DNA of 64,000 nt, taken from the IMG/VR virus record IMGVR_UViG_3300035210_000151; one strand, 5' to 3'. Below the pieces are notes generated by a model that saw only the letters and a program-made list of their open reading frames with translations, was not told the origin of the DNA and searched no databases. A program made the position numbers and the translations under genes. Of this stretch, positions 11,842-60,545 are shown piece after piece. Source of the DNA: a virus. Taxonomy: Duplodnaviria > Heunggongvirae > Uroviricota > Caudoviricetes. Position 1 is the first letter of the stretch, and every line of letters begins with the position of its first letter.

Positions 11842-11860
11842 ATCATTATTAGGAGGTTAT

Positions 11861-24152: not shown

Positions 24153-24179
24153 TAGACTACTTTGTAAAGGTGATTGACC

Positions 24180-28834: not shown

Positions 28835-28963
28835 TGTATCATATTTTTGTTATTAAAAAAGAACATTAATTATTCATTTTCTGTTTCCGTTAAAATAGAT
28901 ATCTATTGATTCTAGTTTGTGTTTTGTGGTAAAATAAGACAACTTTTTAATGAGTATTTCCTT

Positions 28964-32999: not shown

Positions 33000-34007
33000 A
33001 TGAGCAGTTTGGCCCATTTTTGTAATCGTATTGGTATTGACAGCCATCTGTTACGAGTTATCAAAAAAGACAATATCCTTTATAACAAAAAAACCGCTGA
33101 ACCTCTTTCTGATTGGGTTATTTTTAATGCTGTCAACAATCCTATTCAAGACAGCTTAATTTTCCATAAATTTAGAGACGATGAAAACTTCTATACAGAG
33201 CCGTATTCATTCGTTGCTAATAATCTTCCGATTATGCCTAGAAATACAATCCATCAAAAGGCTACGAAAGAATCAACGTTCCAACGTCATAATAATCAAC
33301 ATTCAATCATTGTTGACAATCAGCCCTACTTTACGAATCTTTTTAATAAAGCGTGTGAAGGTGTTTCAGATTACAAAATGATTTATCCTTTTGAAGATTT
33401 TGGCAACTTTTCGTTTAGTATTGATTTCAGGTCAGAAGTGCTTACACTAAAACGCATTTCAACCAGTTTGGTCAATCGCTCAAATTTGGATGTGCTAGAT
33501 GCAGATAATTACAGTTATGCAGCTCGTTTGAATTTATATCATGGGGCTAATCAAAAAATGCATTTTTCTCCCCACTACATTACAGACTTTTCAGATGACA
33601 TTAATCGTAAGTTAATGGTTATTAATCATGCTGTTTATGATTTATGGCAAGATTTATCTGATGTACCGGGATTTTTGAAATCGAGTATTTATTCATTTCC
33701 AAATGCTACGCATAAATTAAAAGGTCATTACTTTACTATTACTGACACTGGATCTGGTTTGGATATGAACTTGGATAGCTTTTTCAAATTCACCATCAAT
33801 TTTGAAGCTTCCATGAAGCTAGCAAAACAATTCATCAAACGATATAATAATTATAACGATCCCATTGCGTTACATGTGATGAAGATGCTTAATATTATTA
33901 ATCCAGTTTCTCTTGATTTAATGATGGCACAAGATCTTTATGACTTCTATAATGACATTGAAGCTTTTGAAAATTATATTAAAGTATTTGAAATGACCAC
34001 TATTTAG
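33000..34007 (+). CDS. hypothetical protein, MxxI C-terminal motif
   Basis: Ends YIKVFEMTTI. Confidence 0.8.
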   Translation: MSSLAHFCNRIGIDSHLLRVIKKDNILYNKKTAEPLSDWVIFNAVNNPIQDSLIFHKFRDDENFYTEPYSFVANNLPIMPRNTIHQKATKESTFQRHNNQHSIIVDNQPYFTNLFNKACEGVSDYKMIYPFEDFGNFSFSIDFRSEVLTLKRISTSLVNRSNLDVLDADNYSYAARLNLYHGANQKMHFSPHYITDFSDDINRKLMVINHAVYDLWQDLSDVPGFLKSSIYSFPNATHKLKGHYFTITDTGSGLDMNLDSFFKFTINFEASMKLAKQFIKRYNNYNDPIALHVMKMLNIINPVSLDLMMAQDLYDFYNDIEAFENYIKVFEMTTI

Positions 34008-34019
34008 GAGTTCGCAATA

Positions 34020-34868
34020 ATGTTTGTTATGGAATACCGAAAGCCATTAAGTGAACTGGGACAAGACAGTCGAAAGCTTTGGCTTGAAAAAGATATTGCT
34101 GCCTCGCCATCATTTTTGGTCAATGACCTCTTGAAAATTTTTAATCATCATGATATTACACCTTTCTTTTCAAGATCAACAGGAGTTTCTTTCAAATATT
34201 CAGACAGTGATACATTTCTTATCAGAGATGTAGGACAATTTAATACCTTAACTAAAAAATTGTTAGATCCTCACTTTAAATATGGTATTCGTGATTCGCT
34301 GAATAAGTTGACTCCAAAACTTATGAATATTGATAATTTTCTGAAGCCTGATATGATTTCAGGTTTTTATGACATGTTGTTTGATCGTAGTCGCTATTAT
34401 AAAACAGTAGTGGTTAATCTTAATCCAGCCGCTACAACCATTCATGACATTGACTTTCTGGATATTTATTATGACAGTCATTACAGTTTATTTCCGTCAG
34501 CAAATAAGCCATTTTCTAAAAAAGGACCAACTTATACAAATAGAATAGGTGTTTGGTTTAGAATTTATCTTAAACCAGAAGCATGCAGTTTTTCTGTCCA
34601 TAAAGAAAACATTAACTGTATGGCTCAGCATCCGCTAGATGAAACGGTTCGTGAAGATATTAAACTAACAGACTTGAACAAAAAAAAGACCAGTCAGTAT
34701 TTTGTAAACAGTATTGAATATCATTTTAAATTTCATTATGATGATTTTGATTCAGCACTTATTTTGTATTTGGATTCAAAAAGGGATGAACTATCAAAAA
34801 AACTAGGCTATGAGGTCACAGTTGTTGATCGTCATATGCTTGACCTTATCAATATGACGCTTATTTAA
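34020..34868 (+). CDS. hypothetical protein, MxxI motif; triplet family with next two genes
   Basis: MFxxxYR, WLxxD, RD, LGY; ends LDLINMTLI. Confidence 0.8.
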   Translation: MFVMEYRKPLSELGQDSRKLWLEKDIAASPSFLVNDLLKIFNHHDITPFFSRSTGVSFKYSDSDTFLIRDVGQFNTLTKKLLDPHFKYGIRDSLNKLTPKLMNIDNFLKPDMISGFYDMLFDRSRYYKTVVVNLNPAATTIHDIDFLDIYYDSHYSLFPSANKPFSKKGPTYTNRIGVWFRIYLKPEACSFSVHKENINCMAQHPLDETVREDIKLTDLNKKKTSQYFVNSIEYHFKFHYDDFDSALILYLDSKRDELSKKLGYEVTVVDRHMLDLINMTLI

Positions 34869-34886
34869 AAATGGAGTTAACTTAAA

Positions 34887-35768
34887 ATGTTTGTTAAACC
34901 TTACCGATCTCACGTAACACAAATGAATGGAATGACTCCAAAACTTTGGTTGGAACGTGATCTTAATATGGCTCCACCTAAACTGGTAACGTCATTAAGA
35001 GAGCATTACAGTCGTTTTAATAGTGATCTCCTTCCGGTTTTGAATACAGCAACCAGTGTTTCTTTTCAGTATGCTGATTCTAATGAATATATTGTTAGAG
35101 ATCTTGGTTACGCCAGTATTATTATGAAATCTTTGCTAGATTTAAAGATTACGGGTGGATTTAATAATAAAATAGATTCAATAGTCAATAAGCTGTCACG
35201 TATTGATAAATTTATAGGTGTTAATAAGGGTGGGTTATTTTACCAAATATTAAGTCGTCAAACCTATGTTCGATCAATTGTTGTTGGTTTAAAAAATGGT
35301 GCTGATTGCATTAGTGATATTGAATACGTTGAACTTTGTTATGATAACAAACCAAATATCATTCCTTTTAATAAGCCCATTGCAAAGAAATTTCCAGTAA
35401 GAACTAAACGAACAGGTGTTAAACTTAAACTTGAAGACAATAATGTTGAGAATACTAAAGTTTATAGAACAGGGGTTAAAATACGACTTTATCTGGAACC
35501 CACAATAGCGAGCTATATAGTTAAAAAAGAAAGTGTTAATTGTATTGAAGACATTACATATTTTGACAGTAGAAATCCGGCACAAATGAGTGATTATCTT
35601 TTGGACAGTACAGAACATCATTTAAATGTTTATCATAAAGATGTTGATGATGAATTAGTTTTAGCTTTTCTTGAAGTGAATAAAGAACGATTAAGTCAGA
35701 AGTTTGGTTACACTGTTACACATATAGATAAATCTATTCTTGATATTATTGAGATGGCAATTTTTTAA
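34887..35768 (+). CDS. hypothetical protein, MxxI-type motif; triplet family
   Basis: Ends LDIIEMAIF; internal RTGVK duplication. Confidence 0.8.
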   Translation: MFVKPYRSHVTQMNGMTPKLWLERDLNMAPPKLVTSLREHYSRFNSDLLPVLNTATSVSFQYADSNEYIVRDLGYASIIMKSLLDLKITGGFNNKIDSIVNKLSRIDKFIGVNKGGLFYQILSRQTYVRSIVVGLKNGADCISDIEYVELCYDNKPNIIPFNKPIAKKFPVRTKRTGVKLKLEDNNVENTKVYRTGVKIRLYLEPTIASYIVKKESVNCIEDITYFDSRNPAQMSDYLLDSTEHHLNVYHKDVDDELVLAFLEVNKERLSQKFGYTVTHIDKSILDIIEMAIF

Positions 35769-35830
35769 AGATTGTTTTATTTTGACTTATGTGCTATTAT
35801 TGAGAACGGATAAATTGGGAGCTTAGTAGT

Positions 35831-36691
35831 ATGTTTTTAAAACCTTATCGTCATCTATTGCTAGATGAATCAATTAAAAGTCATGAAGCTTGGTTGCTTA
35901 AAGATATGGATGCAGCTCCACAGAATCTATTACAATCTTTTATCACCCATGTAGAAGCAATCCCTTCAGATACCATAAAATATTTTGTTCGACCTGCTTT
36001 AAAACAAATGGTGAGTGGCAAGAAACCTACTGACATCTCTTTGCAGTTTTCTGGAAATCACGACTTTATTTTACGTGATTTGGCTTTTGGTGAAACTATT
36101 GTCAAATCGCTTTTATCTAAACATATAGACAAAGAAATTAATGAGTATATCAATATTTTTTTTGATAAACTAAATAATGTTGATTATTTTTTAAATGGCA
36201 CGTATAATCGTGATTTTAATAAAAATAACATGCATTATCATAAATCATTTGTTGTGGGACTTAATCAAAAAGCTACTAGTATTGATGATATAGAATATAT
36301 TGATGTCTTTTTTGATAGTAAACACGATGCAATTCCAACCAGTAAAAAATTAAATCTATGTCCAGAATGTGTTAGTCGAAAAGGTATTGCATTGCGGTTT
36401 AATTTAAAATTAACACCATCATCATTTAGAACTAATGAAGAAACTGTTAACTGTAGTTCAGTGGGTGATGGATCTCAATACAACACTATTACTGATTGTT
36501 CTGGTGCTTTTCATAGCACTTATATTCTCAACAGTACAGAATATTATTTTGATATGTATATTAACGATATTGATAATGTCATGATTAGCTACCTTGAAAC
36601 TCATAAAGATGTATTGGCTCAGCGACTAGGTTATATTCCTGATGCTATTGATAAAGATATATTAAAAGTTATTGATATGGTTGTTATTTAA
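35831..36691 (+). CDS. hypothetical protein, MxxI motif; triplet family
   Basis: Ends LKVIDMVVI. Confidence 0.8.
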   Translation: MFLKPYRHLLLDESIKSHEAWLLKDMDAAPQNLLQSFITHVEAIPSDTIKYFVRPALKQMVSGKKPTDISLQFSGNHDFILRDLAFGETIVKSLLSKHIDKEINEYINIFFDKLNNVDYFLNGTYNRDFNKNNMHYHKSFVVGLNQKATSIDDIEYIDVFFDSKHDAIPTSKKLNLCPECVSRKGIALRFNLKLTPSSFRTNEETVNCSSVGDGSQYNTITDCSGAFHSTYILNSTEYYFDMYINDIDNVMISYLETHKDVLAQRLGYIPDAIDKDILKVIDMVVI

Positions 36692-36699
36692 GGATTATT

Positions 36700-37689
36700 A
36701 TGAATCAGATTGAAAAAGAATTATTATTACAATTATTAAATATTGATGAAAAGAATATCAACTACTATTTAAAAAACAACAATGTTTCTCATATGGATAC
36801 AGGTATAGTCGATCTGAGTTTTCTTTTGTATTCTTGTTTGAAATCAGGTTTAACGGATGTTCAGATTGTTTATAATCAAACTACTGATGTTGTAAGTTTT
36901 AAATCATATCTCCGTTCCATAGAAAATATTGATTTTGACCGTTACGAAATTATCAAAAAAGATTTACATCTTTTTTATAAGGGCATTTCTTATGTCATTA
37001 AGGATGCTGGGTTGTATCTTTTTGATGAGCCTACTTATTTACAAATGTCATTGAATGAAAATAACTCAGGACTTCATACAGCTACTTATAGAACTAATAA
37101 ATATATGACTAATGTTGGCCCATCACTTATGTATCGTTTGGTTTATATTGGGTATCCAAAAATAGGTGGATATGTTGATGATGAATTTGATTTCCAGTAT
37201 GAGCATTCTTTTGACGCCCTTGAAGAACTCGATGAAAAAAACTATTTTGTAACAGACGCTCAATTAGATCATAATTTCAAGATCACATCAAAGTATTTAA
37301 CACAAAAGAATTCTAAGAAACTTGATAAAAAATTAAATATTTACAAAGATAGTTTATCTTTAATTACGAAAGGTTCTAAAATCAATGAATATTATTCTCC
37401 AACTAAAAGTAGGATTACTTTTTTCATTAATGAAGATAACGAATTAGATTTCGATCTAAATATGCAATTTAATCATAATCTATATAGCTATTCTGCTTTA
37501 GAGCAAATAGACAAAATTATTAACTACAAGAAACATTTTGAATCGAATTTTTTTATCCATTTTCTATCGTCTTTTGAATCAATTTTTATAGAGTATTTTA
37601 AGAAAAATGATTTTCTTATAGATGTGAGTATTAATTGTGTTGACGATTTATTAAATTATAGAAATTTGATGGGAATGGCTAAAATTTGA
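36700..37689 (+). CDS. hypothetical protein, MxxI motif
   Basis: Ends YRNLMGMAKI. Confidence 0.8.
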   Translation: MNQIEKELLLQLLNIDEKNINYYLKNNNVSHMDTGIVDLSFLLYSCLKSGLTDVQIVYNQTTDVVSFKSYLRSIENIDFDRYEIIKKDLHLFYKGISYVIKDAGLYLFDEPTYLQMSLNENNSGLHTATYRTNKYMTNVGPSLMYRLVYIGYPKIGGYVDDEFDFQYEHSFDALEELDEKNYFVTDAQLDHNFKITSKYLTQKNSKKLDKKLNIYKDSLSLITKGSKINEYYSPTKSRITFFINEDNELDFDLNMQFNHNLYSYSALEQIDKIINYKKHFESNFFIHFLSSFESIFIEYFKKNDFLIDVSINCVDDLLNYRNLMGMAKI

Positions 37690-37786
37690 TTTGAATTCCA
37701 TATTAATATTATTTATGTAGGTTGTTAACTTCTTTTCTTTTGATTAAATTATGCTAAATTACTAGTTAATAACAAAAAATAATGTA

Positions 37787-38575
37787 ATGAAAGCTAAAGT
37801 TGATTTAGATATAGAAGTAAAAAAATATTTCATTATTTTTTTTGAACAGCATTTCTCAATAACGCCCATTTATAAACGTATTGATAAAGAAAATGCTTCA
37901 TTTGAAATCGTTGTGGATAATAATAGTGAACTTTTCATTGTGAAGTATGCAAGCCTATTTGCACAAAAATCAGCTTTACAAATACGTTCGACAGCAAATC
38001 CTGCTTTTCTTGAAAAAGTGTTCAATCTATTATTTGACAATGAACAGATTAATTATAAGCAACGATTATTATTTATCCTTGATAGTATTAATGATGTAAA
38101 TGCTAAATTTAAGTTCTTCAGTCAAATTGATTTAGACAGCACACCATTTTTTTCGTTTAAGTCTTCAATAGATAAAAAAGATAACAGGCTTTATTATAGT
38201 TTGTGTACTAAACGATATTTTAGAATGCAGGTTAATAGTAATTTATATAACGTCACTGAACGAAGTGCTCACTTTTTAACAGGACGGTTTGATTTAGATT
38301 TAAATGTTAAAAACACTCAGATTGAATTTAGATGCCAACTTACTTCAAGTAGTTTAGACGAATATGCGGTTGATAGTGTAATTATGATTACAGTTGCATT
38401 GGACAAATTCGAAAAATCAGTTAAAAGATGTAAGAAGCAAATGATATCTCTTATACTGGATGAGTGTTTTGCTGATATTGTTGCTGACCATGATATCTCA
38501 TTAAAAAAATTGCAGGCCATGTCAGAAGAAGAAATTAAACCTTATGCTGATTTGGTTTATATGTCGAGGATTTAA
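37787..38575 (+). CDS. hypothetical protein, MxxI motif
   Basis: Ends YADLVYMSRI. Confidence 0.8.
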   Translation: MKAKVDLDIEVKKYFIIFFEQHFSITPIYKRIDKENASFEIVVDNNSELFIVKYASLFAQKSALQIRSTANPAFLEKVFNLLFDNEQINYKQRLLFILDSINDVNAKFKFFSQIDLDSTPFFSFKSSIDKKDNRLYYSLCTKRYFRMQVNSNLYNVTERSAHFLTGRFDLDLNVKNTQIEFRCQLTSSSLDEYAVDSVIMITVALDKFEKSVKRCKKQMISLILDECFADIVADHDISLKKLQAMSEEEIKPYADLVYMSRI

Positions 38576-38577
38576 AT

Positions 38578-39366
38578 ATGAAACAATTCTTAAATTTAGA
38601 ATTTCCAAAGATTGGTTTACTCAGCCATATCATGCCACAGTTAAAAGATTATAGACTGGATGAAGAACGTTCGTTTTATGATATTGTACCGAACCGTTTT
38701 AAAGGTAATATTAGACGTTCTTTTCTGAGAATTCATAAAGAAACTCATTACGTCTCTTTCCTTGGCTCAAACCTAGCAGATAAGCTCTTTCTTTTGTCAT
38801 CACTAGATTACCTTCCACTTGATAACAACTATATCTTGGAAATGTTTAATATCATCTATACAGCAGCCGAAAAATATAAAATCTATGACCCACGCAAGAA
38901 CAAGAGTCATCAGAAAAATATATTAAATAGGTTGAACAATAAAAACAAGCTTGAATTTACATCTCGTTTCAAAACTCATTTTGATGTTATTGGCATGTTG
39001 TCGAGTAAAAGAAAATATCGAGATCTTGTGATGAGTAGACAATATCTATTTAACGAACAATGCCAATTAACAGAAGTTTATTTATTCCAATTACCTATTC
39101 CATACCCCGATTCTAATGAGACACTTTTCAATGTAATGATTACGCAATTAAATGGAGTGTGGCATATCAATTGTGAACAAATTAAGCAAAGTCCCGATGG
39201 TTACATTGGCGTTGATTATTGTTTTTCTGATTTAGAATCCTTTTCTTTTTTGATTAACAATGAATTTGCTACTCATTATAAATCAGTGATTAAACATAAC
39301 CTTGATATAGACACTGATGTGCTTAATGAAGATTATGTTTCACTTTTGAGAATGATGGTAATTTAA
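38578..39366 (+). CDS. hypothetical protein, MxxI motif; paralog of 43394-44194
   Basis: PNRFKGN; ends NEDYVSLLRMMVI. Confidence 0.8.
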   Translation: MKQFLNLEFPKIGLLSHIMPQLKDYRLDEERSFYDIVPNRFKGNIRRSFLRIHKETHYVSFLGSNLADKLFLLSSLDYLPLDNNYILEMFNIIYTAAEKYKIYDPRKNKSHQKNILNRLNNKNKLEFTSRFKTHFDVIGMLSSKRKYRDLVMSRQYLFNEQCQLTEVYLFQLPIPYPDSNETLFNVMITQLNGVWHINCEQIKQSPDGYIGVDYCFSDLESFSFLINNEFATHYKSVIKHNLDIDTDVLNEDYVSLLRMMVI

Positions 39367-40265: not shown

Positions 40266-40838
40266 TCAAATCAATGCCATTTTTAATACTTTGTCATCTA
40301 TTTCTACGTTTTCTTTTATATCTGTAATAAATCTATGAAATTCTTTTAAATCACTAAAAATATAAAACCGTTGTTGTTCTTCATTGTTTTTTAATACTTT
40401 GTTTAATTGTAGCTTTCCATCATCCATCAATTTAAATAATACAAAAAAATCAGCTTCGACTTGAATGGTGTAAGTATCTTTTGTCAAGTTTACTGAATAG
40501 TTATTTAATTTTCCATAATAGGTAGTGTCTATATTGAGTTTAATCATCTCTAAGAATATATCATGTTTCCTATTTTGAACTTCCTTATAAATATTATCAT
40601 TTAATACTTCAATGTAATCTATAAGTTTTGAATCTCTGTTTTTATTTTCAATTCGATCCGCTATCAGTTTTCTTTTAATTGTTTCTAATTTAAAATCTTC
40701 AAATTCATAATCATAGTCTACCAAACCCATGCTCAACGATAATGAATTGAATTCAATCCCTAAATCTAGATTGGGTATCATTATATATTTTAATGATATA
40801 AATGTATTGTATTTACGACATTGATTTAAAAAATTCAT
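40266..40838 (-). CDS. hypothetical protein, MxxI motif
   Basis: Ends DDKVLKMALI. Confidence 0.75.
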   Translation of the reverse strand: MNFLNQCRKYNTFISLKYIMIPNLDLGIEFNSLSLSMGLVDYDYEFEDFKLETIKRKLIADRIENKNRDSKLIDYIEVLNDNIYKEVQNRKHDIFLEMIKLNIDTTYYGKLNNYSVNLTKDTYTIQVEADFFVLFKLMDDGKLQLNKVLKNNEEQQRFYIFSDLKEFHRFITDIKENVEIDDKVLKMALI

Positions 40839-41036: not shown

Positions 41037-42578
41037 ATGGATATGAAAGCAGGTATGCTTGAACCAAGGAACATGTATAAGAATTATACACTCAGTCTTT
41101 ATTTAGCCATCACTCCGAAACGTTTGAACGTTACGGGTTTAAATTGTATTGATACTTTGACAGGTATGATTGATAAAGAAGGGGTTTCATCACTTACTGA
41201 TATGCTGGTTAAATTGTATAGCCAACCTGTCAGTCAAAAAATAAAGTCCATTTATGGTGTGGGTCATTATAAAACTTATTTTGATCTTTATGATTTCGCC
41301 ATAAAATCACATAAACACATTCATTTGAACCTTATTGAATTTCTTAAAGAAGAGGGGAAACGTGAATTTTATTATGCCTTGAAGAATGTCAACGAATCCA
41401 TGAACTATAAAGAAGGTGCATTATTTAGCCAACTTTCACTTCTTCACAAAAATAAGCTAACACGGGAAGAATTTTTAATCTGGACGCAAGAAGTTGTTGA
41501 CCGAGAAGCTAAAAATAGACTGCAAAAAGACCTTATTACACGAAGACTTGTACAAGCAGAAGCAAACCATGCCCAAGTTATAAAATCGACCACTGTTTCA
41601 GTCATTATTCCAGTACCTTCTTTTGAACCAAAAAGTTCAAGCTTTAACGATGGTGCTGTGGATGTGAACATTTTAAAAGAACGCAATGAAGCTAGAGCAA
41701 AATTTACATCAATGTTTGCCCCCTACAAAGGTGGTATAGATTTGGTATTAGGATATCAAGAAAAAGGCTTTTTTCAAAAGAAACACAATTGTTTAAATTT
41801 AAATATACACAATAGTCAAGAAGGTATTATTATTGCTGGGGAAGATTCTGGCCCGAAAGAACTGCTACGTTCCTATATCTATCAGTCCATCAGTCAATCT
41901 AGTGGATTATTACTCTTTTCGGCTCTCTCTGATAAGTCTACTTTGACCTATGTGTTTCAGGTAGCTAAACATTTTGATATTGTGGACGATGTGCATGTAT
42001 TCTATTATGGTTCTGATGAGTTATCCACATTGACCATCAATGATTATATTAAATCCAATAAAATTGTATTAATTTTGTATCCAGAATTTCTAGGCACTAC
42101 CAGTAATGAAGAAAATCTTATTAAATGCTATCAAAGTATTAATTCTATTATTTCTAATGTGAGCGTCAGTAATATTAATAAAGGTGCCACAAAGTTTCCA
42201 TTCAATATTTATTTCAATGAACTTTCATTTCCAACTTATATAGGAGAAGAACTTAGAAAATTGATAGCGAACTTATCATGTTTGCATATACACAATGTTA
42301 ACTATTACATTGTTAATGAAAGCTTAACATTACTCTATTCTGAATTTAGTCCAGATATTTTTAATCATATCAAGAATGTCATTATTCTTAATAATGAATC
42401 TGGTAAAGAAATCTGTCAATATTTCGACACTCAAAAATTAAAACCTGCTGACTTTTCAGCATTAGAACCGCTAGAATTTTATTATTTCTCTGAAAATGTT
42501 TTGGTTAATTCTCGTAAATTCAATGGGATTTATATGCCAATTGATATTGATGTAAATCTCGATGATCACCTAAATTAG
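41037..42578 (+). CDS. degenerate DotL/IcmO/TrbC-like coupling-protein ATPase homolog lacking the all-alpha domain
   Basis: IIIAGEDSGPKE (decayed Walker A), QSSGLLLF, DDVHVFYY, NKIVLILYP, PFNIYFNE (decayed Walker B). Confidence 0.6.
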   Translation: MDMKAGMLEPRNMYKNYTLSLYLAITPKRLNVTGLNCIDTLTGMIDKEGVSSLTDMLVKLYSQPVSQKIKSIYGVGHYKTYFDLYDFAIKSHKHIHLNLIEFLKEEGKREFYYALKNVNESMNYKEGALFSQLSLLHKNKLTREEFLIWTQEVVDREAKNRLQKDLITRRLVQAEANHAQVIKSTTVSVIIPVPSFEPKSSSFNDGAVDVNILKERNEARAKFTSMFAPYKGGIDLVLGYQEKGFFQKKHNCLNLNIHNSQEGIIIAGEDSGPKELLRSYIYQSISQSSGLLLFSALSDKSTLTYVFQVAKHFDIVDDVHVFYYGSDELSTLTINDYIKSNKIVLILYPEFLGTTSNEENLIKCYQSINSIISNVSVSNINKGATKFPFNIYFNELSFPTYIGEELRKLIANLSCLHIHNVNYYIVNESLTLLYSEFSPDIFNHIKNVIILNNESGKEICQYFDTQKLKPADFSALEPLEFYYFSENVLVNSRKFNGIYMPIDIDVNLDDHLN

Positions 42579-43393: not shown

Positions 43394-44194
43394 TTAAATT
43401 TTAATCATTTCTAATAAAAGAAGATAATCTTCGTTATAATCGACTTTTTCTTCATTTAGCCATTTTTTCACTGCAGCTTGGTATCTGTCTAAAAAACGTT
43501 CAGTAAGCGATTTTTTTAAGCATTCTGGATTGGTCACGTCTTCATTGGCTCCATTTTCTGTTTTAGTCAGATAAATCATTGTTTTTTCTTTGTTATGCAA
43601 TATGGATACTGTCATTTTAAAAAGACCTTTCATGGGAAATTCTAAGGTGTGACAAGGCAGAATGGTCAGATCATCAGCCATATAATAATGTTCGCTCAAA
43701 TAAAGCTGTCCATTAATAGATTTACTACGTCCAGTGGTCATTTTACCCACAAGTCCATATTTTAAACCTACTTCAATCTTATCTTGAAGTCTATTCGGAT
43801 TATCTAACCATTTTTCTAATTTTTGGGATGTCTTCTGCATGTTATGATGGTCATAATACTTGTAATAATGAGCGATTTCATACACTGTCTTAAAAGTGTC
43901 TAGAACGAGTTTTTTATTGATAGGTGCTTTATTAAATTTATCAAACAAAACTACTTGTTCTTCTACTGTCCCACCTAATAACATTACCAAACTATCTTCC
44001 CTATCAATGTGAAGGCTTGCTGATGATGGATTGCCTTTAAATTTATTAGGCTTAATGCTGTAGCTGGCAGATGTATAATAGTTATATAGCTCTTGAAATT
44101 CTTCATCTTCTTCTGTCAGCATATAATTGCTAAGATTACTTTTCACGAATTTAAGTAAATCTATTTTTTTAATATTGCACTCGAAATACTTCAT
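43394..44194 (-). CDS. hypothetical protein, MxxI motif; paralog of 38578-39366
   Basis: PNKFKGN; ends NEDYLLLLEMIKI. Confidence 0.8.
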   Translation of the reverse strand: MKYFECNIKKIDLLKFVKSNLSNYMLTEEDEEFQELYNYYTSASYSIKPNKFKGNPSSASLHIDREDSLVMLLGGTVEEQVVLFDKFNKAPINKKLVLDTFKTVYEIAHYYKYYDHHNMQKTSQKLEKWLDNPNRLQDKIEVGLKYGLVGKMTTGRSKSINGQLYLSEHYYMADDLTILPCHTLEFPMKGLFKMTVSILHNKEKTMIYLTKTENGANEDVTNPECLKKSLTERFLDRYQAAVKKWLNEEKVDYNEDYLLLLEMIKI

Positions 44195-44357
44195 GATAAG
44201 TCCTCTTTAAGTTTATTCATTATTAACCAAAAATAGAATAACTCAATATTTAATGTCCACTTCAATTAAAACACCTAATTCATCTTTTTTTAGTAAAAAA
44301 CTTTAAAAGTAAAATAAAATGTGTTAAACTGATCTATCTTAAATCATGGAGATAATT

Positions 44358-45530
44358 ATGAATATCGTATTTGCCGACCATCCCGTTCCAAAAAACATTA
44401 CAAAGTCACTTTTCCTTGCTGGCCCTTCGCCTCGGGAGATTGGGATACTGGATTGGCGACATGAAGCTATTGATTATCTCAAAAGCATCAACTTCCAAGG
44501 CACCATCTTTGTTCCTATTCCAGAAAAACGCTTCTATGGCTCTACTGACTTGCCTAATTGGAACTATCATACTCAGGTAGAATGGGAATGTTTGTGCCGT
44601 GATATTTCTGACACTATTGTCTTTTGGGTTCCACGAAGTATCGAAGGTAAAATGCCCGGTTTCGTGACCAATATTGAATTCGGTGAAGACCTTGCCACAG
44701 GTAAAGTCGTCTATGGCCGTCCACCAGAAGCCGAAAAATGTAAATACCTTGATAAACGTATGACTGATAAAGGTTATCCTGTCTTTGAAACCTTGTCTGC
44801 AACACTTGATCATGTGGCTAAAACGCTGGGTGATGGTTCGTTCCGTAAAGATGGTGAAGTCCATGTCCCATTGTTCATTTGGAAATCAGACCAATTTCAA
44901 AATTGGTATGCTAATTTGCTGGCTGCTGGTAATACGTTGGAGTCAGCTCGTGTCCACAGTCAGGTCACTGTGGGTGATAACCATCTATTTGCGTATGTAT
45001 TGGCCGTTAAGATTTGGGTCGCCAGTGAACGTAGATTGAAAAGCAATGAATTTGTATTCTCACGAAAAGACAGTATCAATGTGTGTATGTATTATAAAGA
45101 CATTGATGACACTAAAATTGTGTTGGTTAAAGAATTCCGTAGCACTGTTAATAACATGGAAGGGTTTGTGTATGAGCTACCCGGTGGAAGCTCTTTCAAT
45201 CCAGAAAAAAATATTGTGTCTATTGTCAAAGATGAACTCCATGAAGAAGTGGGTTTTACACTGGATGATGATACTCGTTTAGTCCATGTAGATACTCGAC
45301 AAGTGGCGGCTACTTTTGCGACTCATCAAGTGCATCTTTATAAAATTGAATTAAATAAATCTGAATATGATTCGATTGTTGCCAAAAAAGATCAGAAGTT
45401 TGGCAACATTGAAGATAGTGAAGTCATCAGTATTGAAGTGGTCAACCTTAAAGAACTCTTTAACAAGTTGGTAGACTTTTCAGTTATCGGAATGATTTTT
45501 TCAAGTATTTTGGAAAATCATAATTCTTAA
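44358..45530 (+). CDS. nucleoside 2-deoxyribosyltransferase-like domain fused to NUDIX hydrolase
   Basis: LFLAGP, QVEWE, IVFWVPR, TNIEFG; Nudix box ELPGG...ELHEEVG. Confidence 0.85.
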   Translation: MNIVFADHPVPKNITKSLFLAGPSPREIGILDWRHEAIDYLKSINFQGTIFVPIPEKRFYGSTDLPNWNYHTQVEWECLCRDISDTIVFWVPRSIEGKMPGFVTNIEFGEDLATGKVVYGRPPEAEKCKYLDKRMTDKGYPVFETLSATLDHVAKTLGDGSFRKDGEVHVPLFIWKSDQFQNWYANLLAAGNTLESARVHSQVTVGDNHLFAYVLAVKIWVASERRLKSNEFVFSRKDSINVCMYYKDIDDTKIVLVKEFRSTVNNMEGFVYELPGGSSFNPEKNIVSIVKDELHEEVGFTLDDDTRLVHVDTRQVAATFATHQVHLYKIELNKSEYDSIVAKKDQKFGNIEDSEVISIEVVNLKELFNKLVDFSVIGMIFSSILENHNS

Positions 45531-46681: not shown

Positions 46682-47653
46682 ATGAAAAAATTTAGAAGTA
46701 TTGATGGTCTTTCTAAAATCTTCACGATGTTGCGTGCTAACGCAGATTATAAGGGTATTCCACATTCTGAATTGCCTACTCTGAATTTCACAGGTACTGT
46801 AAAAATTCATGGCACCAATGCCGGTATGATTATTGAATCAGCGGACGCCACAACTGTGACAGCACAAGGACGAGATAAAATAGTGACCTTCGATCACGAT
46901 AATGCCGGTTTTGCGGCTTATTGCATGTCATTGACACCAAAGGTCATCCAAGAGATGTATAAAGCCCTTAATCCATCAGGAAAAGGTGTTTTGACTGTTT
47001 TTGGCGAATGGGCCGGTGAAGGCGTTCAGAATAGTGCAGCAGTGGGTAAAGTGCAGAAGCATTTTATTATTTTTGCAGCTCATGTTGATTCTCAATACAT
47101 TACGCTTAATCGTGAGTATCACAACCATGATTACCGTATCTATAACGTATATGAAGTCCCTACTTACAATATTGACATCAACTTTGCTAATCCCGGTAAC
47201 ATCGAAGAAGTGTTGACTGAACTTACTTTGGCTGTTGAAGCTGAATGTCCTTGGGCCTTGCAGTTTGGTGTTTCTGGTATTGGTGAAGGTATTGTTTGGC
47301 ATTTGACCGATGATCCGACTAACTCAGGTTACATTTTTAAAACGAAAGGGCCAAAACACTCTGTTCGTAAAAACCCATCTGCAAAAGCGGCTACTGTTGA
47401 TGTAGAAAAGGTAAACTCGATTCATGAGTGCGTTGATATTATGTTGACTGAAAATCGCATGAAGCAAATGATTAAAGATCACAACATTGAAGTTATTCCA
47501 GAAAACTTCGGTGTGTTCTTGAAGTATGTCTCTATGGATTGTTTGAAAGAAGAGTCGGCTTTGCTGGTTGAGAACAATCTCCTTTGGAAAGATGTCACTA
47601 AATCATTGGCAGTTCGTTGTCGTGAATGGTATTTCAAGAATTTTGAAATTTGA
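46682..47653 (+). CDS. RNA ligase, Rnl2-like family
   Basis: Motif I KIHGTN, FGEW, GEGIVW, FKTKG. Confidence 0.85.
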   Translation: MKKFRSIDGLSKIFTMLRANADYKGIPHSELPTLNFTGTVKIHGTNAGMIIESADATTVTAQGRDKIVTFDHDNAGFAAYCMSLTPKVIQEMYKALNPSGKGVLTVFGEWAGEGVQNSAAVGKVQKHFIIFAAHVDSQYITLNREYHNHDYRIYNVYEVPTYNIDINFANPGNIEEVLTELTLAVEAECPWALQFGVSGIGEGIVWHLTDDPTNSGYIFKTKGPKHSVRKNPSAKAATVDVEKVNSIHECVDIMLTENRMKQMIKDHNIEVIPENFGVFLKYVSMDCLKEESALLVENNLLWKDVTKSLAVRCREWYFKNFEI

Positions 47654-48751: not shown

Positions 48752-48822
48752 CGTCTTTTAGTTATAAACAAAAACACCACAGATGTGGTGTTTTTTATTG
48801 TCATTAAATTTAATTTTTTTGA

Positions 48823-49178: not shown

Positions 49179-49691
49179 TTAGTTATCGTTATGATGGTTG
49201 CTGTGATGATCATGAGAGCTATCATGCCCACCACTATTGCTTGAATCATCAGAAGCCGCATATACAAAGTCACTGTATACATTGCCATCTTTATCCCTTT
49301 TTGCATTACCACCTTGACGATGTTTTGGATCAATGTATTGTGCCATTTTTTGACGCTCATTGTAAATCATTGTATGAAACTCATTTCTTTTTTCTAGAAA
49401 ATTGACACATTTTCTGAGGTGTCTTAAAAGACCACTATCACCTGCCACATCAAATTTATCTGCTGAAAACTTGACTTTCTCTGTAAGTCTATCATAGGTG
49501 ATGGTCAGTTCTTCTTCAAAAGGTGAAAAAATGTATTGATCTTTTGATGGTAAGACCAGTGTTAATACATTATCGTCTAATGTATAGTTAAATGTCAGGT
49601 TTGGATAGATGTTCATACCATAATCAATTCTTAGGATATTCAGGATATGGTTTAATATGTGTTTTTTCTTGAAATAATTAAACATGAGCAT
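49179..49691 (-). CDS. hypothetical protein with Ser/His/Asp-rich tail
   Basis: AGGAG RBS; low-complexity C-terminus. Confidence 0.7.
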   Translation of the reverse strand: MLMFNYFKKKHILNHILNILRIDYGMNIYPNLTFNYTLDDNVLTLVLPSKDQYIFSPFEEELTITYDRLTEKVKFSADKFDVAGDSGLLRHLRKCVNFLEKRNEFHTMIYNERQKMAQYIDPKHRQGGNAKRDKDGNVYSDFVYAASDDSSNSGGHDSSHDHHSNHHNDN

Positions 49692-49747: not shown

Positions 49748-50356
49748 TTAACTTAATAAAAAATGAGCAGCTTGTGTATTTTCTTTATTGATTTCTTTAA
49801 CATGGGAAGCATAAGAAATTAGGTTTACTAATTCATGAAATTCAACATTATCAATTTGGACTCCATTGATTCTAAATGTGTTTTTCGTAAATTCATTTCT
49901 TTTTTCTATTAGTATTATTATATCTTCAAATTCCACAGTTAAATAAGATCCAGTTTGATCTTTTCTTAATTTATATTTTCTATCAAGCTTAAAATCACAT
50001 TTGTCCTCTATATCTTTCTCACTTGTTATTTTAATACGATGTAGGCTCATTATTATAAATTCATGGTGTATCTCTGTATCTGCAGCTTGGTTTATTCCTA
50101 ATGAGCCATCAAAACCGGGTAAACAATGTAGGTATTCTTTAAGTTTTAAAGCCTCTTTATTATTATCTGCAAAATTTATTAGACCTTTTAAATTAGAATC
50201 TGCTGGTAATTTGTCTTCATCTGCTAATTCACACATTGCAACCAATAATATTATAGCTCTTCTAACCCACAGATCATCTGGTTCATTATAGTCTATACCA
50301 GAGAAGTCATAAATATTGAAAAGATTTTTTATTTTTATATATTCATTGTATACCAT
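49748..50356 (-). CDS. DotL all-alpha-domain-like family protein, copy 5
   Basis: DLWVRRAI, LKEYLHCLPGF, HHEFIIMSL; GAGGA RBS supports start at 50356. Confidence 0.65.
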   Translation of the reverse strand: MVYNEYIKIKNLFNIYDFSGIDYNEPDDLWVRRAIILLVAMCELADEDKLPADSNLKGLINFADNNKEALKLKEYLHCLPGFDGSLGINQAADTEIHHEFIIMSLHRIKITSEKDIEDKCDFKLDRKYKLRKDQTGSYLTVEFEDIIILIEKRNEFTKNTFRINGVQIDNVEFHELVNLISYASHVKEINKENTQAAHFLLS

Positions 50357-50423
50357 AGTATTAATATCCTCTTTTTTAAGCATACTAGCATTCAAAGAAT
50401 AATTAGCAATATGGATTATGATA

Positions 50424-51041
50424 TTAACGGAGCAAATAGTAAACAGCTTCTATATTTTCTTTGGTTATATTTTTTGTAAATTGTGTATATGAAATAATAT
50501 TGACTAGATTATGCAATTCAATATCGTCTACAAGCGTATCATTTACTCGAAAAGTTTTTTGAAGAAATTCATTTCTTTTTTCTATCTGGACAGTGTAATC
50601 GTTAAAAACTACATCTAAATAAGATCCATCCTGATCTGTTCTTAACGTATATTTACCCAAATGATTTATTGTACATCTATCATTAAGCTCCTGTTCTCTT
50701 TGTTCAGCAAGCCCATTTAAATTCATTTCTACAAAACCATGTTGATTATATGTGCCTGTTGATTGATTAGAACCCAATGAATCTTTATACCCCGGAAGTA
50801 TTTTTAGATAATTTTTTAATTTAACAGCATCTTGATTCTCAGTTATGAATTTTGTTAAATCATCTAAATTTGAACTTTGTGGGTATTTTTCTTTGTAGCT
50901 TAATTCACACATAGATTCGATCAGCATTAATGCACGACTAGACCACATATCCATACCACTGTTGTTGCTAAGAAACGTTTCACCGTAAAAACCACAGATG
51001 TTGGCTATATTTTTTATCTTTATATATTCATTATAATACAT
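50424..51041 (-). CDS. DotL all-alpha-domain-like family protein, copy 4
   Basis: GMDMWSSRAL, LKNYLKILPGY, QHGFVEMNL. Confidence 0.7.
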   Translation of the reverse strand: MYYNEYIKIKNIANICGFYGETFLSNNSGMDMWSSRALMLIESMCELSYKEKYPQSSNLDDLTKFITENQDAVKLKNYLKILPGYKDSLGSNQSTGTYNQHGFVEMNLNGLAEQREQELNDRCTINHLGKYTLRTDQDGSYLDVVFNDYTVQIEKRNEFLQKTFRVNDTLVDDIELHNLVNIISYTQFTKNITKENIEAVYYLLR

Positions 51042-51105
51042 CAGTTAACATCCTCTTTTACAGTATGCTAGCATTAGAATGATAACTTTCAATAGATAGA
51101 TAATA

Positions 51106-51717
51106 TTAACGAAGAAAGTAATAGGCAGCTTCTGTGTTAACAACAGTAGGATCTTTTACAATATTACTATAGTTAATCAAATTAATGAGTTCTTCCATTT
51201 TTATATCTGGGACACTACGGTTATTGACCATGAAATTATGAGGATAGTTAACAGAGTTTCTTTCAATTTTAATCATCACATTTTCTGTCTTTATGTTTAA
51301 TTGTAAACCGTTCTTAATATTTTTTAAGTTCATTTCAATTAAAGAATCGTTGAAATACACACCACCCAAATTTGATTGGTTTCTATGTCTGAAATCATCT
51401 AAACAATGAAGAATGAAACCATGTATTTCATAATCTTTAATGGTTGGTTGTACACCTTCTTTATAATTGGAGATAAAATGATCCATGTATTTTCTTAACA
51501 TAGAAGCTTCTGGATTTTCTTTTATAAATTTAAGAACTGAATCCAAAGCAGCACTTTCAGGATATTTGCCATTATCACCAAGCTCGCACATGGCGTCTAA
51601 TAACAATAGTGCCCTTGATTCCCACATAACATCGTGATCAGCACAAATTAATGATTTTCCATAACAATCATAAATCATGATTAGATTTTTTATTTTAACA
51701 TACTCTTTGTATAGCAT
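51106..51717 (-). CDS. DotL all-alpha-domain-like family protein, copy 3
   Basis: VMWESRAL, MCEL, IHGFIL; ends AAYYFLR. Confidence 0.65.
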   Translation of the reverse strand: MLYKEYVKIKNLIMIYDCYGKSLICADHDVMWESRALLLLDAMCELGDNGKYPESAALDSVLKFIKENPEASMLRKYMDHFISNYKEGVQPTIKDYEIHGFILHCLDDFRHRNQSNLGGVYFNDSLIEMNLKNIKNGLQLNIKTENVMIKIERNSVNYPHNFMVNNRSVPDIKMEELINLINYSNIVKDPTVVNTEAAYYFLR

Positions 51718-51719
51718 GG

Positions 51720-52346
51720 TTAGCTTCTCTCACTGTTAAAAAAAAAGAAGGCTGCTTGTATATTTTGTAAGTTAATCTGTTTAACAAATCTAGCATAGGT
51801 AATAACATTTATCATCTCAGAGAATTTTAAATCTTCAAAGATAACATCATTGATAATGAACGTTTTTTCGTCTAATGCATAATCTCTTTCTATAGTTACT
51901 TTAAATCCTTGTAAATTGACATCCAAAAAATCACTAGTTATTTCATCTCTAAGTATATAGTCAGCATTAAAATCAGGATGACAATTTCCATAAATGTCTC
52001 CCATGTAACATTTTGGCAACCGATGTAGCCCATCACTGTGAAGACTATGATAGGATAATGTTTCCATACATTGTTTTGTTAGTTTTTTATTATATTTGGG
52101 GATGCTTGTTAAATATTCGTTTAATAATCTTGCCTCATAATTTTCATTTGAAAATTTGGTCAGATCACTTAGTTTTGAACTGATAGGATATTTACCAGTG
52201 GCCTCTAACTCGCACATTGCCATTAAGAGTCTTTCACTTCCTTCATACCTTATACTTCCTACCGATTTCTCATCGACAAAAGGTTTTTCGTAGATCTGAA
52301 ACAATCTCATTAAATTTTTAATTTTGATGTATTTTTCAAATAACAT
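51720..52346 (-). CDS. DotL all-alpha-domain-like family protein, copy 2
   Basis: YIKIKN, MCEL, KYP, LNEYLTSIPKY. Confidence 0.6.
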   Translation of the reverse strand: MLFEKYIKIKNLMRLFQIYEKPFVDEKSVGSIRYEGSERLLMAMCELEATGKYPISSKLSDLTKFSNENYEARLLNEYLTSIPKYNKKLTKQCMETLSYHSLHSDGLHRLPKCYMGDIYGNCHPDFNADYILRDEITSDFLDVNLQGFKVTIERDYALDEKTFIINDVIFEDLKFSEMINVITYARFVKQINLQNIQAAFFFFNSERS

Positions 52347-52363
52347 GATTATATTTATCCTTA

Positions 52364-52996
52364 TTATCTTAAAAAGTTATAAGCGACTTGTATATTTTTT
52401 AAATTTAATTCTTTGACAATAGTAGCATAATTAATGAGATTGATCAATTCATTAATCTCAATATCTTCAAACATGATTCCATTGATTTTAAATGATCTTT
52501 TATTAAAGTGATGTAAGTGTTCAACGCTCAAAAGAACGCCATTAGAATTAACATTTAAATAACTACCATCCTTATCTTCTTCAACGTATAAAGAAATGAT
52601 GTTATCCAGTTTGTAGTAAGGTTGAAATTGACTAAACTTATTACTTCTATGTTCAATTTCATTTAATTCAAGCATTGCGAGACGGTGCTGGTAATATGTT
52701 TCTTTGGGTTGGTTACAATAAAGGCTTTCATCATATCCGGGGATGTTGTGTATATAATTGTTTAATTTTTTGGCTTCTGGATTTTCATTGACGAATTTTA
52801 TCAGGTCATTTAAATCTGTACTTTCTGGGTATTTATTTTTGTTTTCCAATTCACAAAAAACAGCCACTAATAATCTACCAATTGTACAATCGTTATCTTT
52901 TTTATTAACTAAAAATATATCATAGTATTTCTTACTGTCATAAAATTTACAAATATCCATTTTGTTTTTAATAGTAATAAATTCATGTTTGTACAT
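52364..52996 (-). CDS. DotL all-alpha-domain-like family protein, copy 1
   Basis: FCEL, KYPES, LNNYIHNIPGY, QH; ends VAYNFLR. Confidence 0.6.
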   Translation of the reverse strand: MYKHEFITIKNKMDICKFYDSKKYYDIFLVNKKDNDCTIGRLLVAVFCELENKNKYPESTDLNDLIKFVNENPEAKKLNNYIHNIPGYDESLYCNQPKETYYQHRLAMLELNEIEHRSNKFSQFQPYYKLDNIISLYVEEDKDGSYLNVNSNGVLLSVEHLHHFNKRSFKINGIMFEDIEINELINLINYATIVKELNLKNIQVAYNFLR

Positions 52997-52998
52997 AA

Positions 52999-53535
52999 CT
53001 ACCTCAATATCGACAATATTTCATTAAATCGTTTATTATCCAGTTTATAATTCAATTTGTAGTTTGAAATGAAAATTTCAAAATCACTGGCCCGTTTAAA
53101 CGTCAGTTTACCTCTGTTCTTTTTCCGTTCTATGAACCCACCCAAATAGCGTATGGTATTAATTTCAGTCAATTTATAATACATTTTATCGCCGTTCTCA
53201 TATTCAATAATGATAATAGCCGTATTCATTTTTATCTTTAATCCATCATAAACAAAATCATGTGCCCGATGTTTTAATAATGACTGCATAAGTTTTTCAT
53301 GTTTTTCTGCTGTTGTCATGTCTAGGTATTTTCTTAACTCTCTATTGTCCACAATGTTGTATGTTTTATCAGACAGCTTAATGAGATCGTCATAACGTAA
53401 CGATTTGGGTGACATGGGATGACTGGTTATCATTTTCATGAATGACCATTCTGCTTTCATATTGATACCGAAGAGTTTCAACACTTCAAAATAGGTCAGT
53501 AAGCTTTTATTTCTTCGGTAACTGTAATCTAGCAT
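52999..53535 (-). CDS. hypothetical protein
   Basis: AAGGA RBS; same operon as the five-gene array; ends ILSILR. Confidence 0.7.
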   Translation of the reverse strand: MLDYSYRRNKSLLTYFEVLKLFGINMKAEWSFMKMITSHPMSPKSLRYDDLIKLSDKTYNIVDNRELRKYLDMTTAEKHEKLMQSLLKHRAHDFVYDGLKIKMNTAIIIIEYENGDKMYYKLTEINTIRYLGGFIERKKNRGKLTFKRASDFEIFISNYKLNYKLDNKRFNEILSILR

Positions 53536-53556: not shown

Positions 53557-54165
53557 TTAAAATTTAATCATCTCTAATACATCTGTTGTGAACTCAGAGT
53601 ATTCATCAATGTTATTCATGTAAGTAAAAATTTCTTCTGATGTATCGAAAAAATAGTTTTTAAAACAGGTTGTTCTCTTTTTATCTTTATTGTAAATATG
53701 AAGCAATCTAAATTTATCTTCATATTTTAATAAGGTGACTTTATGTATACCACATTCAATAACGACAACATCGTCTGAATATTTTACACCCGTGCATTGT
53801 CTAGCCAGTCCTTTGTTGGTAGGAAGTTCAATTTGTATCAGCAAGGCTATAATTTGAATAGTTTCGTCAATAAGCTTGTCATTCAAAATATTGCCTAGAT
53901 TTTGACAAGATGTTTTATTATTTACCGCATCATTGATAATATGGTCAATTTCTCCACCATCTAATACCTTTAATAAATCAAATACAGTTTTATTGAATAA
54001 TCTTTTTGATTCATAAACAGATTCGAAAATAGCAATAGCGAGTAAGGCTTTGTTATTATCATTATTCATCAGATGATCATTTACGATGTTGATATTTTCA
54101 TACCATTTTTCCATCATCTTTTTGAATGCCCCATGATCTTTAATCTTTCTAGCTCTTGTGCTCAT
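53557..54165 (-). CDS. hypothetical protein, MxxI-type motif
   Basis: Ends TDVLEMIKF; GGAG RBS. Confidence 0.75.
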   Translation of the reverse strand: MSTRARKIKDHGAFKKMMEKWYENINIVNDHLMNNDNNKALLAIAIFESVYESKRLFNKTVFDLLKVLDGGEIDHIINDAVNNKTSCQNLGNILNDKLIDETIQIIALLIQIELPTNKGLARQCTGVKYSDDVVVIECGIHKVTLLKYEDKFRLLHIYNKDKKRTTCFKNYFFDTSEEIFTYMNNIDEYSEFTTDVLEMIKF

Positions 54166-54232
54166 TAAGATCTCCATATACAGAATAAAATTTTGTCTAT
54201 ATTATCACATTATCTTAAAAATATCAACTTAA

Positions 54233-55390: not shown

Positions 55391-55987
55391 ATGGCAAAAT
55401 TGTATTTTAGGCACGCGGTAATGAATTCTGGTAAAAGTTTGGCTCTACTTCAAGTAAATCACAACTATGTATCAATCGGTAAAAAAACTGTTTTATTCTC
55501 ACATAAATTAGATGATAGATTTGGTGAAAATGTTATTGCGTCAAGGCTGGGTGTATCGGCTGACAGTGTTGCAGTGTTTGAAGACCTTAATTTATTTGAC
55601 CATGTAAAATCAAGAATTGAAGCGGGTGAACCGATTGCTTGTGTTCTTTGTGATGAAGTCCAATTCTACACAGATCTACAAATAGAACAACTCTCAGACA
55701 TCGTAGACTTCCTTAACGTTCCTGTGATTTGTTACGGTTTAAAATTATCCGCTTTTGGTGAACTTTTTGGTGCAGCTAAGCGTCTAATCGAACTGGCTGA
55801 TGAAATAGAAGAATTAAAGCATGTCTGCTGGTGTGCAAAACGTGCTACCATGATTATTCGTCATGATGAACATGGTAATGTCATAAAGTCAGGTAACCTT
55901 GTTGATGTAGGTGCTGAAAGCAAATATCGCTCAGTCTGCCGAAAACACTGGAAACTTGGTATTTACGAAGCCCCAAAAGACGAGTAA
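55391..55987 (+). CDS. tdk: thymidine kinase
   Basis: MNSGKS P-loop, DEVQF, VICYGL, Zn ligands CWC...CRKH. Confidence 0.95.
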   Translation: MAKLYFRHAVMNSGKSLALLQVNHNYVSIGKKTVLFSHKLDDRFGENVIASRLGVSADSVAVFEDLNLFDHVKSRIEAGEPIACVLCDEVQFYTDLQIEQLSDIVDFLNVPVICYGLKLSAFGELFGAAKRLIELADEIEELKHVCWCAKRATMIIRHDEHGNVIKSGNLVDVGAESKYRSVCRKHWKLGIYEAPKDE

Positions 55988-59900: not shown

Positions 59901-60545
59901 ATGAAAATTCGTATTCTTTCCGCTGTTCTGTTGGCTGCATCTGTTCTGTTGGGTGGTTGCACAACAAATCCCTACTCAGGTGAAAAGCAAATGGCTAAAT
60001 CTGCCAAATATGGTACCATTGCTGCAGTAACGGGTGGTGTCATTGGTGCTCTTGTCGGTGGTGAGAAAGGTGCTTATATTGGTGCCGGTCTAGGTGCAAT
60101 GACAGGTGGTGGTTATGGCTACTACACTGATGTGCAAGAAAAGAAACTGCGTGAACAAATTCAAGCCAGTAACGCTGAAATGGAGCTGTCTCGAACCAAA
60201 GACAATCGCCTGATGATTACCATGCCGGGTGATATTTCGTTCATGTCGGGTAGTGCTGACATTAATCCATCCAATTATCAAGCTCTCACAGTAATTGCGA
60301 ATGAAGTCAGAACCAACAACATGACCATGATGATTGTGGGTCATACTGACAACACTGGATCTGTCGCATTGAATGACTCACTGTCAAAAGCTCGGGCTAA
60401 TTCAGTGGCGAGTTACATGTATGCCCAAGGCGTTCCATTTGGGGCTGTAAAAACGGAAGGTCTGTCATTCCACCAACCCGTGGCTTCGAATAGCACACCT
60501 GATGGTCGAGCTAAGAACCGCCGTGTTGAAATCATTCTGCAGTAA
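59901..60545 (+). CDS. OmpA-family lipoprotein with glycine zipper (YiaD-like)
   Basis: Lipobox LGGC, Gly zipper, GHTDNTG, LSxxRA, NRRVEI. Confidence 0.9.
   Translation: MKIRILSAVLLAASVLLGGCTTNPYSGEKQMAKSAKYGTIAAVTGGVIGALVGGEKGAYIGAGLGAMTGGGYGYYTDVQEKKLREQIQASNAEMELSRTKDNRLMITMPGDISFMSGSADINPSNYQALTVIANEVRTNNMTMMIVGHTDNTGSVALNDSLSKARANSVASYMYAQGVPFGAVKTEGLSFHQPVASNSTPDGRAKNRRVEIILQ

Follow-up and report, generated by a model that had tools for sequence, protein, structure and literature searches.

A tandem array of genes for ATPase-less relatives of the DotL all-alpha domain on a likely megaplasmid

Introduction

The all-alpha domain (AAD), which lies between Walker A and Walker B, is the part of type IV coupling proteins that is tied to substrate choice, and binding roles have been shown for the AADs of TrwB (plasmid R388), X. 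citri VirD4 and H. pylori Cagbeta (PMC7434980, PMC8740702, PMC12624023), whereas little is settled about what it does in proteins of the DotL type. In TrwB, VirD4 and Cagbeta the AAD is built into the ATPase, unlike the free AAD described here, which is encoded by five tandem genes (positions 49748-52996) on a 64,000-nucleotide stretch of DNA, hereafter the window, catalogued as IMG/VR virus record IMGVR_UViG_3300035210_000151. The closest described relatives of these array proteins are DotL/IcmO (PDB 6SZ9, 7OVB) and the plasmid DotL/TrbC-type proteins, with which they share the AAD, including the motifs MW..RA and LPGY...QHG, over array residues ~4-117. They differ from DotL/IcmO in having no membrane anchor region, Walker A/B ATPase or DotL tail, in the fusion of a shortened AAD to an unrelated beta-meander/helix domain, and in being encoded in multiple copies of variable number.

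Three other systems invite comparison. The pMEGA megaplasmids of Enterobacteriaceae are low in GC, exceed 1 Mb and carry a Dot/Icm-like type IV secretion system with its coupling protein and many tandem multicopy families (bioRxiv 10.1101/2025.09.30.679422); they reach 1.58 Mb, compared with 1.84-1.92 Mb for the contigs of the relatives found here, and free AADs are not named in the available portions of the pMEGA main text. The Dot/Icm megaplasmid pMPPla107 encodes a 300-aa protein that, like the array proteins, has a DotL-type AAD and no ATPase; unlike in the array, this AAD lies between other segments and there is no array-type C-terminal domain. PifC and Osa are likewise accessory plasmid genes and act on coupling proteins (PMC5696584), a possible functional analogy, although they have no sequence family in Pfam or NCBIfam in common with the array. 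A literature search, with subscription journals mostly outside its coverage, found no description of natural free AADs, and the pMEGA supplementary tables may list the family. The array proteins are not coupling proteins, since they have no ATPase; they represent a new architecture made from a known domain, undescribed as far as searched.

Results

The first-pass annotation of the window, made from the sequence alone, had announced five tandem paralogues of about 205 aa, and all five open reading frames (ORFs) are found at this place. They lie head-to-tail on the minus strand, are 202-210 aa long with all frames intact, and can be aligned over their full length with pairwise identities of 29-47% (E 1e-24 to 1e-63). 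None has a match to a Pfam or NCBIfam family, those of fertility-inhibition factors included, a result still compatible with a new type of such factor; comparison with PHROGs gave nothing beyond one weak 44-residue match (E 0.003). The array and its spacers are composed as follows.

49748-50356, minus strand: copy 1, 202 aa, AAD-like domain followed by a beta-meander/helix domain
50357-50423, minus strand: spacer ahead of copy 1 (intergenic copy A), with sigma70-like TTGCTA-16-TG.TAGTAT at 50409-50382 and AAGAGG
50424-51041, minus strand: copy 2, 205 aa, the most DotL-like copy
51042-51105, minus strand: spacer ahead of copy 2 (intergenic copy B), with TTGAAA-16-TG.TAGCAT at 51092-51065 and AAGAGG
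51106-51717, minus strand: copy 3, 203 aa
51720-52346, minus strand: copy 4, 208 aa, missing from related strains
52364-52996, minus strand: copy 5, 210 aa
52999-53535, minus strand: strongly diverged 178-aa protein, probably a sixth member; 2 bp upstream of copy 5

The ORF of copy 1 spans 49748-50395, with the ATG at 50356, which is preceded by AAGAGG, as its likely start. The ORF at 52999-53535 is probably a sixth, diverged family member, as suggested by its score with the family N-domain profile (E 1.2e-4 among 108 ORFs; hhalign 59%, 57 columns). Two other ORFs, 53557 and 40266, were unsupported as additional members in the same profile scan.

Several comparisons indicate that the array proteins' N-terminal domain very probably descends from the AAD. 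DotL is the top PDB sequence match of a profile made from the five copies (E 0.0045), and an 18-row family profile gives E 7.2e-5; conversely, a profile of 28 DotL proteins places copies 2, 1 and 5 at the top of 205 window frames (copy 1, E 4e-4). The N-half of the family profile scores all 28 DotLs (E 3e-11 to 4e-3) and the C-half none of them. Among 72,556 plasmids copy 2 finds 16 records at E <= 1, of which 14 are annotated as coupling-type ATPases and two are unannotated. Alignment of the family to DotL with hhalign (96.8%, E 2e-10, 111 columns) pairs query residues 4-114 with DotL 203-352, so that the DotL likeness, which had been noticed in the right region, is not merely one of two motifs and takes in nearly the whole AAD. 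The quoted motifs themselves are present in the alignment, with LPGY...QHG complete only in copy 2 and worn in copies 3-5.

The AlphaFold2 model of copy 2 (mean pLDDT 90) comprises a helical domain (3-119), five strands (130-171) and two helices (176-204). Its best match among 48,161 PDB chains is again DotL (7ovb_A; Z 6.9, rmsd 3.6, 84 aligned, 29% identity), with residues 9-117 superposing on 223-352 of that chain. The rows after DotL start at Z 3.8 and include TrwB 185-295, with Cagbeta 336-478 at Z 3.1; these weak matches fall on the AADs of both proteins, the matched part of TrwB overlapping its AAD as defined at G184-G297 (PMC7434980). COMMD proteins, which topped a Foldseek list, were dropped (TM 0.15). 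The model contains no RecA-like core, and the alignment is confined to DotL 203-352, which leaves the array proteins without a Walker A/B nucleotide-binding domain; similarly, no DotL part outside the AAD, such as the membrane-anchor region or the C-terminal tail, aligns to the copies, a result of alignment for which no dedicated membrane predictor was run. The DotL signature motifs are spaced by 67 residues in the array copies versus 84-97 in 27 DotLs, and the array AAD is ~17-30 residues shorter than that of DotL. Both motifs are kept in copy 2, in the relative L002 10001 and in the family proteins P0007, P0008 and P0011, and are eroded in copies 3-6.

The C-terminal beta-meander/helix domain is well conserved and unrelated to DotL. 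That it forms a separate, beta-rich domain, as had been proposed, is supported by both the profile and the structure prediction; the common ending described for it breaks down in copy 4, which ends differently (FFFNSERS). Judged as part of the whole copy 2 model, the domain has no clear known fold: its structural matches in the whole-model search do not exceed Z 3.8 (YbjN/chaperone-like and RWD-like rows), and its PDB sequence match to Ctf19 is weak (E 0.15). The idea that it is a module of the neighbours with M-x-x-I tails (see below) was rejected, as no non-family ORF among the 108 scored better than E 0.05.

The number of copies varies between related elements. The stretch L002, taken from a 1,859,102-bp contig and covered over 20.6 kb, is syntenic with the window and has three array copies, copy 1 being missing by blastn; in X9 and X12, two of the four runs compared over the region, long contigs join 51722 to 52361 and thereby drop copy 4, which leaves four. 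Since five, four and three copies are present in the window, X9/X12 and L002, whole copies have been gained or lost, and this variation supports the tandem amplification that had been suspected. The accompanying claim of duplicated intergenic DNA also holds, in that blocks of motifs common to both stretches can be recognised by eye in their sequences. The spacers before copies 1 and 2 have a common TTG-16-TGnTAnnAT layout followed by AAGAGG, and the layout is identical before L002 10001; from their sequence, the two look like a duplicated promoter-like stretch with a ribosome-binding site. The site in intergenic copy A is under the threshold of the promoter scan and was read directly from the sequence, while that in copy B was listed by the scan, in which promoter-like sites overall were not enriched (34 versus 38.5 in shuffles).

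For eight of the ten paralogue pairs dN is 0.44-0.69 versus a dS of 1.2-2.6, the remaining two being saturated, which indicates that amino-acid change in the array genes is constrained; no signal of positive selection was obtained for the array, where dS is near saturation. Between copy 2 and its closest counterpart in L002 the identity is 49%, compared with 96% for the thymidine kinase, 74% for ORF 41037 and 84% for ORF 52999-53535. In a tree the copies radiate as a star from one ancestor, with nine of 17 inner branches unresolved and only the tips resolved; copy 5 groups with L002 8676-9305 (support 99/95). A search of 1.8 billion proteins yielded 17 family matches, namely ten full-length proteins, four fragments, the distant P0020 and the double-AAD proteins P0019 and P0021, and close relatives of the array and neighbour proteins are on contigs of 1.84-1.92 Mb. 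Pattern-based, non-exhaustive scans found no array relatives in GTDB genomes, viral contigs or annotated phages, and residues 1-115, used as a query to look for longer, fused proteins, gave none among 94 candidates, which is weak evidence. Two candidates were discarded, H74 from Photobacterium as a chance match and H75 as a full-length DotL.

Free AADs also occur elsewhere. The family profile hits two places on the Pseudomonas megaplasmid pMPPla107, a full-length DotL and the following gene.

L034 1450-2352 (pMPPla107 near 499.7 kb), minus strand: 300-aa free-AAD protein, AAD at 140-244, no ATPase

This protein has no match to the array C-domain and has a distinctive 11-residue stretch in common with the DotL of its own plasmid. 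Free AADs have thus originated on more than one occasion, and their partner domains differ. P0019 and P0021 (262-274 aa) consist of two DotL-type AADs in tandem and nothing else, and no genomic context was found for them. Among the full-length proteins, the DotL of a Pseudomonas plasmid (L001 4849-7944) has a ~150-aa insert at residues ~144-294 that splits Walker A and that resembles an intein; similarly longer DotL frames in L003-L008, L011, L012 and L019 probably contain the same insert.

The window also encodes predicted ATPase folds from which the AAD is missing. The first-pass annotation had pointed to ORFs 18724 and 41037 as possible partners, and the pointer proved good in the light of an AAD-less DotL profile and the structure match of 41037.

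41037-42578, plus strand: 513-aa protein, helical N-part and DotL/VirB4-like ATPase fold, degenerate Walker A/B, no AAD
18724-20166, plus strand: 480-aa paralogue of 41037, with identical architecture inferred from sequence

The two proteins are 26% identical over 479 columns (E 4e-39). Protein 41037 scores only 15% against DotL and has no PDB sequence match, nor was it found in GTDB or plasmids by pattern-based, non-exhaustive scans. With the AAD-less DotL profile it reaches 18.7 bits in one piece spanning the junction (versus 12.5 for 18724 and at most 3.0 in 400 shuffles), and its hhalign value against DotL is 14% with the AAD columns kept versus 84% with the AAD removed. The model (pLDDT 74) matches VirB4 (Z 18.5), DotL (17.5) and Cagbeta (17.1), revealing the RecA-like core of the VirB4/VirD4/HerA/FtsK superfamily; residues 234-512 align to 104-584 of the DotL chain (229 aligned), at 18% identity, the highest among the matches, and language-model features point strongly to TrwB_AAD_bind clusters. 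In the model a short loop closes the gap where DotL has its AAD. At the positions aligned to Walker A and B, 41037 has GEDSGPKE and FNELS, and each of the 16 sequences in the A7 alignment shows comparable changes, so neither the Walker A lysine-threonine nor the Walker B aspartate-glutamate is intact. Constraint on the protein is strong (dN 0.19, dS 2.0). Thus 41037 and 18724 are AAD-less, Walker-degenerate relatives of coupling ATPases. As they are two further DotL derivatives in the window, the element has reused dotL more than once, and since AADs without a motor coexist with motor folds without an AAD, both halves of a dissected DotL are kept on it. As a separate observation, residues 13-172 of the 513-aa ORF (41037-41560) form a confident all-helical N-part.

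As to the element itself, Pfam families were found in nine of the 72 scanned window proteins, all of accessory types.

1318-2637: NAGPA
10132-11076: Dam-type methylase
14308-15141: R2K ATP-grasp
20998-21735: PTH2
30971-32425: FMN glutamate-synthase-like
44346-45530: deoxyribosyltransferase-like fusion
46682-47653: RNA ligase
55391-55987: thymidine kinase
59901-60545: OmpA lipoprotein

By their sequence matches, these nine genes resemble an accessory set of a megaplasmid or jumbo phage. The window has no tRNA genes and a GC content of 27-41%; the best plasmid relatives of its thymidine kinase are mostly on replicons of 0.6-1.3 Mb, at less than 50% identity, and the complete genomes of E. coli contain no close DNA match. 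We infer that the window is likely to come from a giant plasmid (megaplasmid). The runs that match the region best are peat metagenomes, two of which are possibly the same material as the window.

Several other features of the window deserve mention. Directly downstream of the array, a 170-aa ORF with a His/Asp/Ser-rich tail (49179-49691) is absent from L002 along with copy 1 (blastn). An 11-pair hairpin at 48770-48795, between convergent genes and flanked by A and T runs, is likely a two-way terminator. Upstream of the copies, where a poly-immunity array of a polymorphic toxin would have its toxin gene, the sixth member is followed by 53557-54177, which has no Pfam or PHROG match. In 16 of 80 window ORFs the protein ends in M-x-x-(x)-hydrophobic, mostly M-x-x-I behind a D..L..L helix, with the pattern loose in two (examples are 11137-12547, 23364-24962, 33000-39366, 40266-40838, 43394-44194 and 53557-54177); these tails may act as a common signal for export or docking at the C-terminus. 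Three large proteins (8212-9981, 26936-28834 and 28919-30907) have a common C-terminal region with LGSSSWCI and Y..A.H.K.D, and two acidic proteins of 500-540 aa (5584-7212 and 21800-23323) have visibly similar N-termini and internal motifs, all five without a Pfam match.

Discussion

Any account of the array has to accommodate its AAD homology, the absence of the motor and of the DotL tail, the intact frames under constraint and the turnover of whole copies. We tentatively favour the view that the array proteins, ATPase-less homologues of the DotL AAD, act as soluble docking modules with which the element adjusts its own, putative type IVB machine. The free AADs would have arisen when part of its own dotL was duplicated, and their expression would be driven by the duplicated promoter-like spacers; each copy would bind substrates or coupling-complex subunits of a putative type IVB secretion/conjugation machine of the element, and the docking modules would tune what this machine recruits, or when. 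Different copies may have different partners, as core residues are retained and the surface motifs that resemble DotL have drifted. There is precedent for AADs that fold and bind on their own, in that the isolated X. citri VirD4 AAD binds the XVIPCD domains of effectors (PMC8740702) and the AAD of Cagbeta binds CagZ (PMC12624023).

A number of points weigh against this proposal. Foldseek with the whole copy 2 model gave nothing at E <= 0.001 in PDB or BFVD, though profile and structural matches were found by the other searches; the Z of 6.9 falls short of 8, the value under which the tool itself advises caution; compared pairwise, copies 3 and 4 are scarcely similar to DotL (E 0.25 and 0.005); and the 17 matches from the 1.8-billion-protein search include no full-length DotL. 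No dot/icm core genes are present in the 64-kb window or in the 20.6 kb of L002. Four of 16 neighbour genes are as divergent from L002 as the array (41-50%), and megaplasmids commonly carry tandem multicopy families (bioRxiv 10.1101/2025.09.30.679422). The routes of substrate capture described for DotL run through IcmSW, DotM and the C-terminal tail and do not involve the AAD (PMC7280309, PMC8740702). The suggestion of the first-pass annotation that the copies are adaptors or decoys likewise leans on AAD roles shown for VirD4/TrwB-type proteins, not for DotL.

It is also possible, if somewhat doubtful, that an early capture of the AAD from dotL gave rise to a fast-evolving family, for instance of host-protein binders, anti-defence factors or secreted cargo, in which it is now a general-purpose helical module for binding or structure and plays no part in coupling. 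The erosion of the DotL motifs in copies 3-6, an AAD shorter than in all 27 DotLs, a well-conserved C-domain with no relation to DotL and the setting of the array among unrelated hypothetical genes by the dozen, 63 of 72 lacking a Pfam match, would all fit such an exapted scaffold. However, both signature motifs are kept in copy 2 and in four of its relatives, and a free AAD, joined to a different partner domain, is found again on a second Dot/Icm megaplasmid.

Unlikely, in our estimate, is a role as decoys, with each copy soaking up the relaxosome or substrates of a different co-resident DotL/TrbC-type plasmid or poisoning its coupling hexamer. Accordion-like gain and loss of copies together with deep divergence fit a conflict system, PifC and Osa are mobile accessory genes that inhibit rival coupling proteins (PMC5696584), and the AAD gives substrate specificity in conjugation (PMC7434980, citing Whitaker 2015). 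Yet the free AAD of pMPPla107 resembles its own plasmid's DotL, which points to self rather than to a rival; moreover, the copies form a star from a single ancestor instead of representing captures from different plasmids, and no signal of positive selection was obtained, dS being near saturation.

The coexistence of the two halves of DotL raises the distinctly unlikely prospect of a coupling protein taken apart, in which variable free-AAD 'specificity heads' and two headless pseudo-ATPase cores combine in trans, mutually or with an intact DotL. If true, such a dissected coupling protein would allow a single secretion machine to exchange and evolve its range of substrates. Very unlikely is a split coupling protein, whose free AADs dock in trans on 41037/18724 to rebuild modular, non-catalytic coupling subunits of exchangeable specificity. 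The DotL span missing from 41037 (~197-364, L029 numbering) does include the span 203-352 covered by the array, and both gene types are syntenic in L002; against this, 41037 and 18724 are on the opposite strand to the array, at distances of 7 kb and 30 kb, the model of 41037 bridges the gap with its short loop and has no detected membrane anchor, the Walker consensus is missing, and the array turns over fast while 41037 is conserved. That a broken dotL left neutral relics, which chance then amplified into the array, is hardly credible: some strains have lost copies, but a dN far under dS in frames that are all intact largely refutes this reading. The confident compact fold also speaks against it, and so do the promoter-like and ribosome-binding motifs, which are conserved between two elements although these are nearly saturated at synonymous sites.

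For the family of DotL-type coupling proteins, five natural variants of a soluble, well-folding AAD, together with their headless counterparts and the free AADs of pMPPla107, make the question of what the DotL AAD binds directly testable. If the copies dampen the transfer of I-type plasmids, they would represent a new kind of natural conjugation inhibitor.

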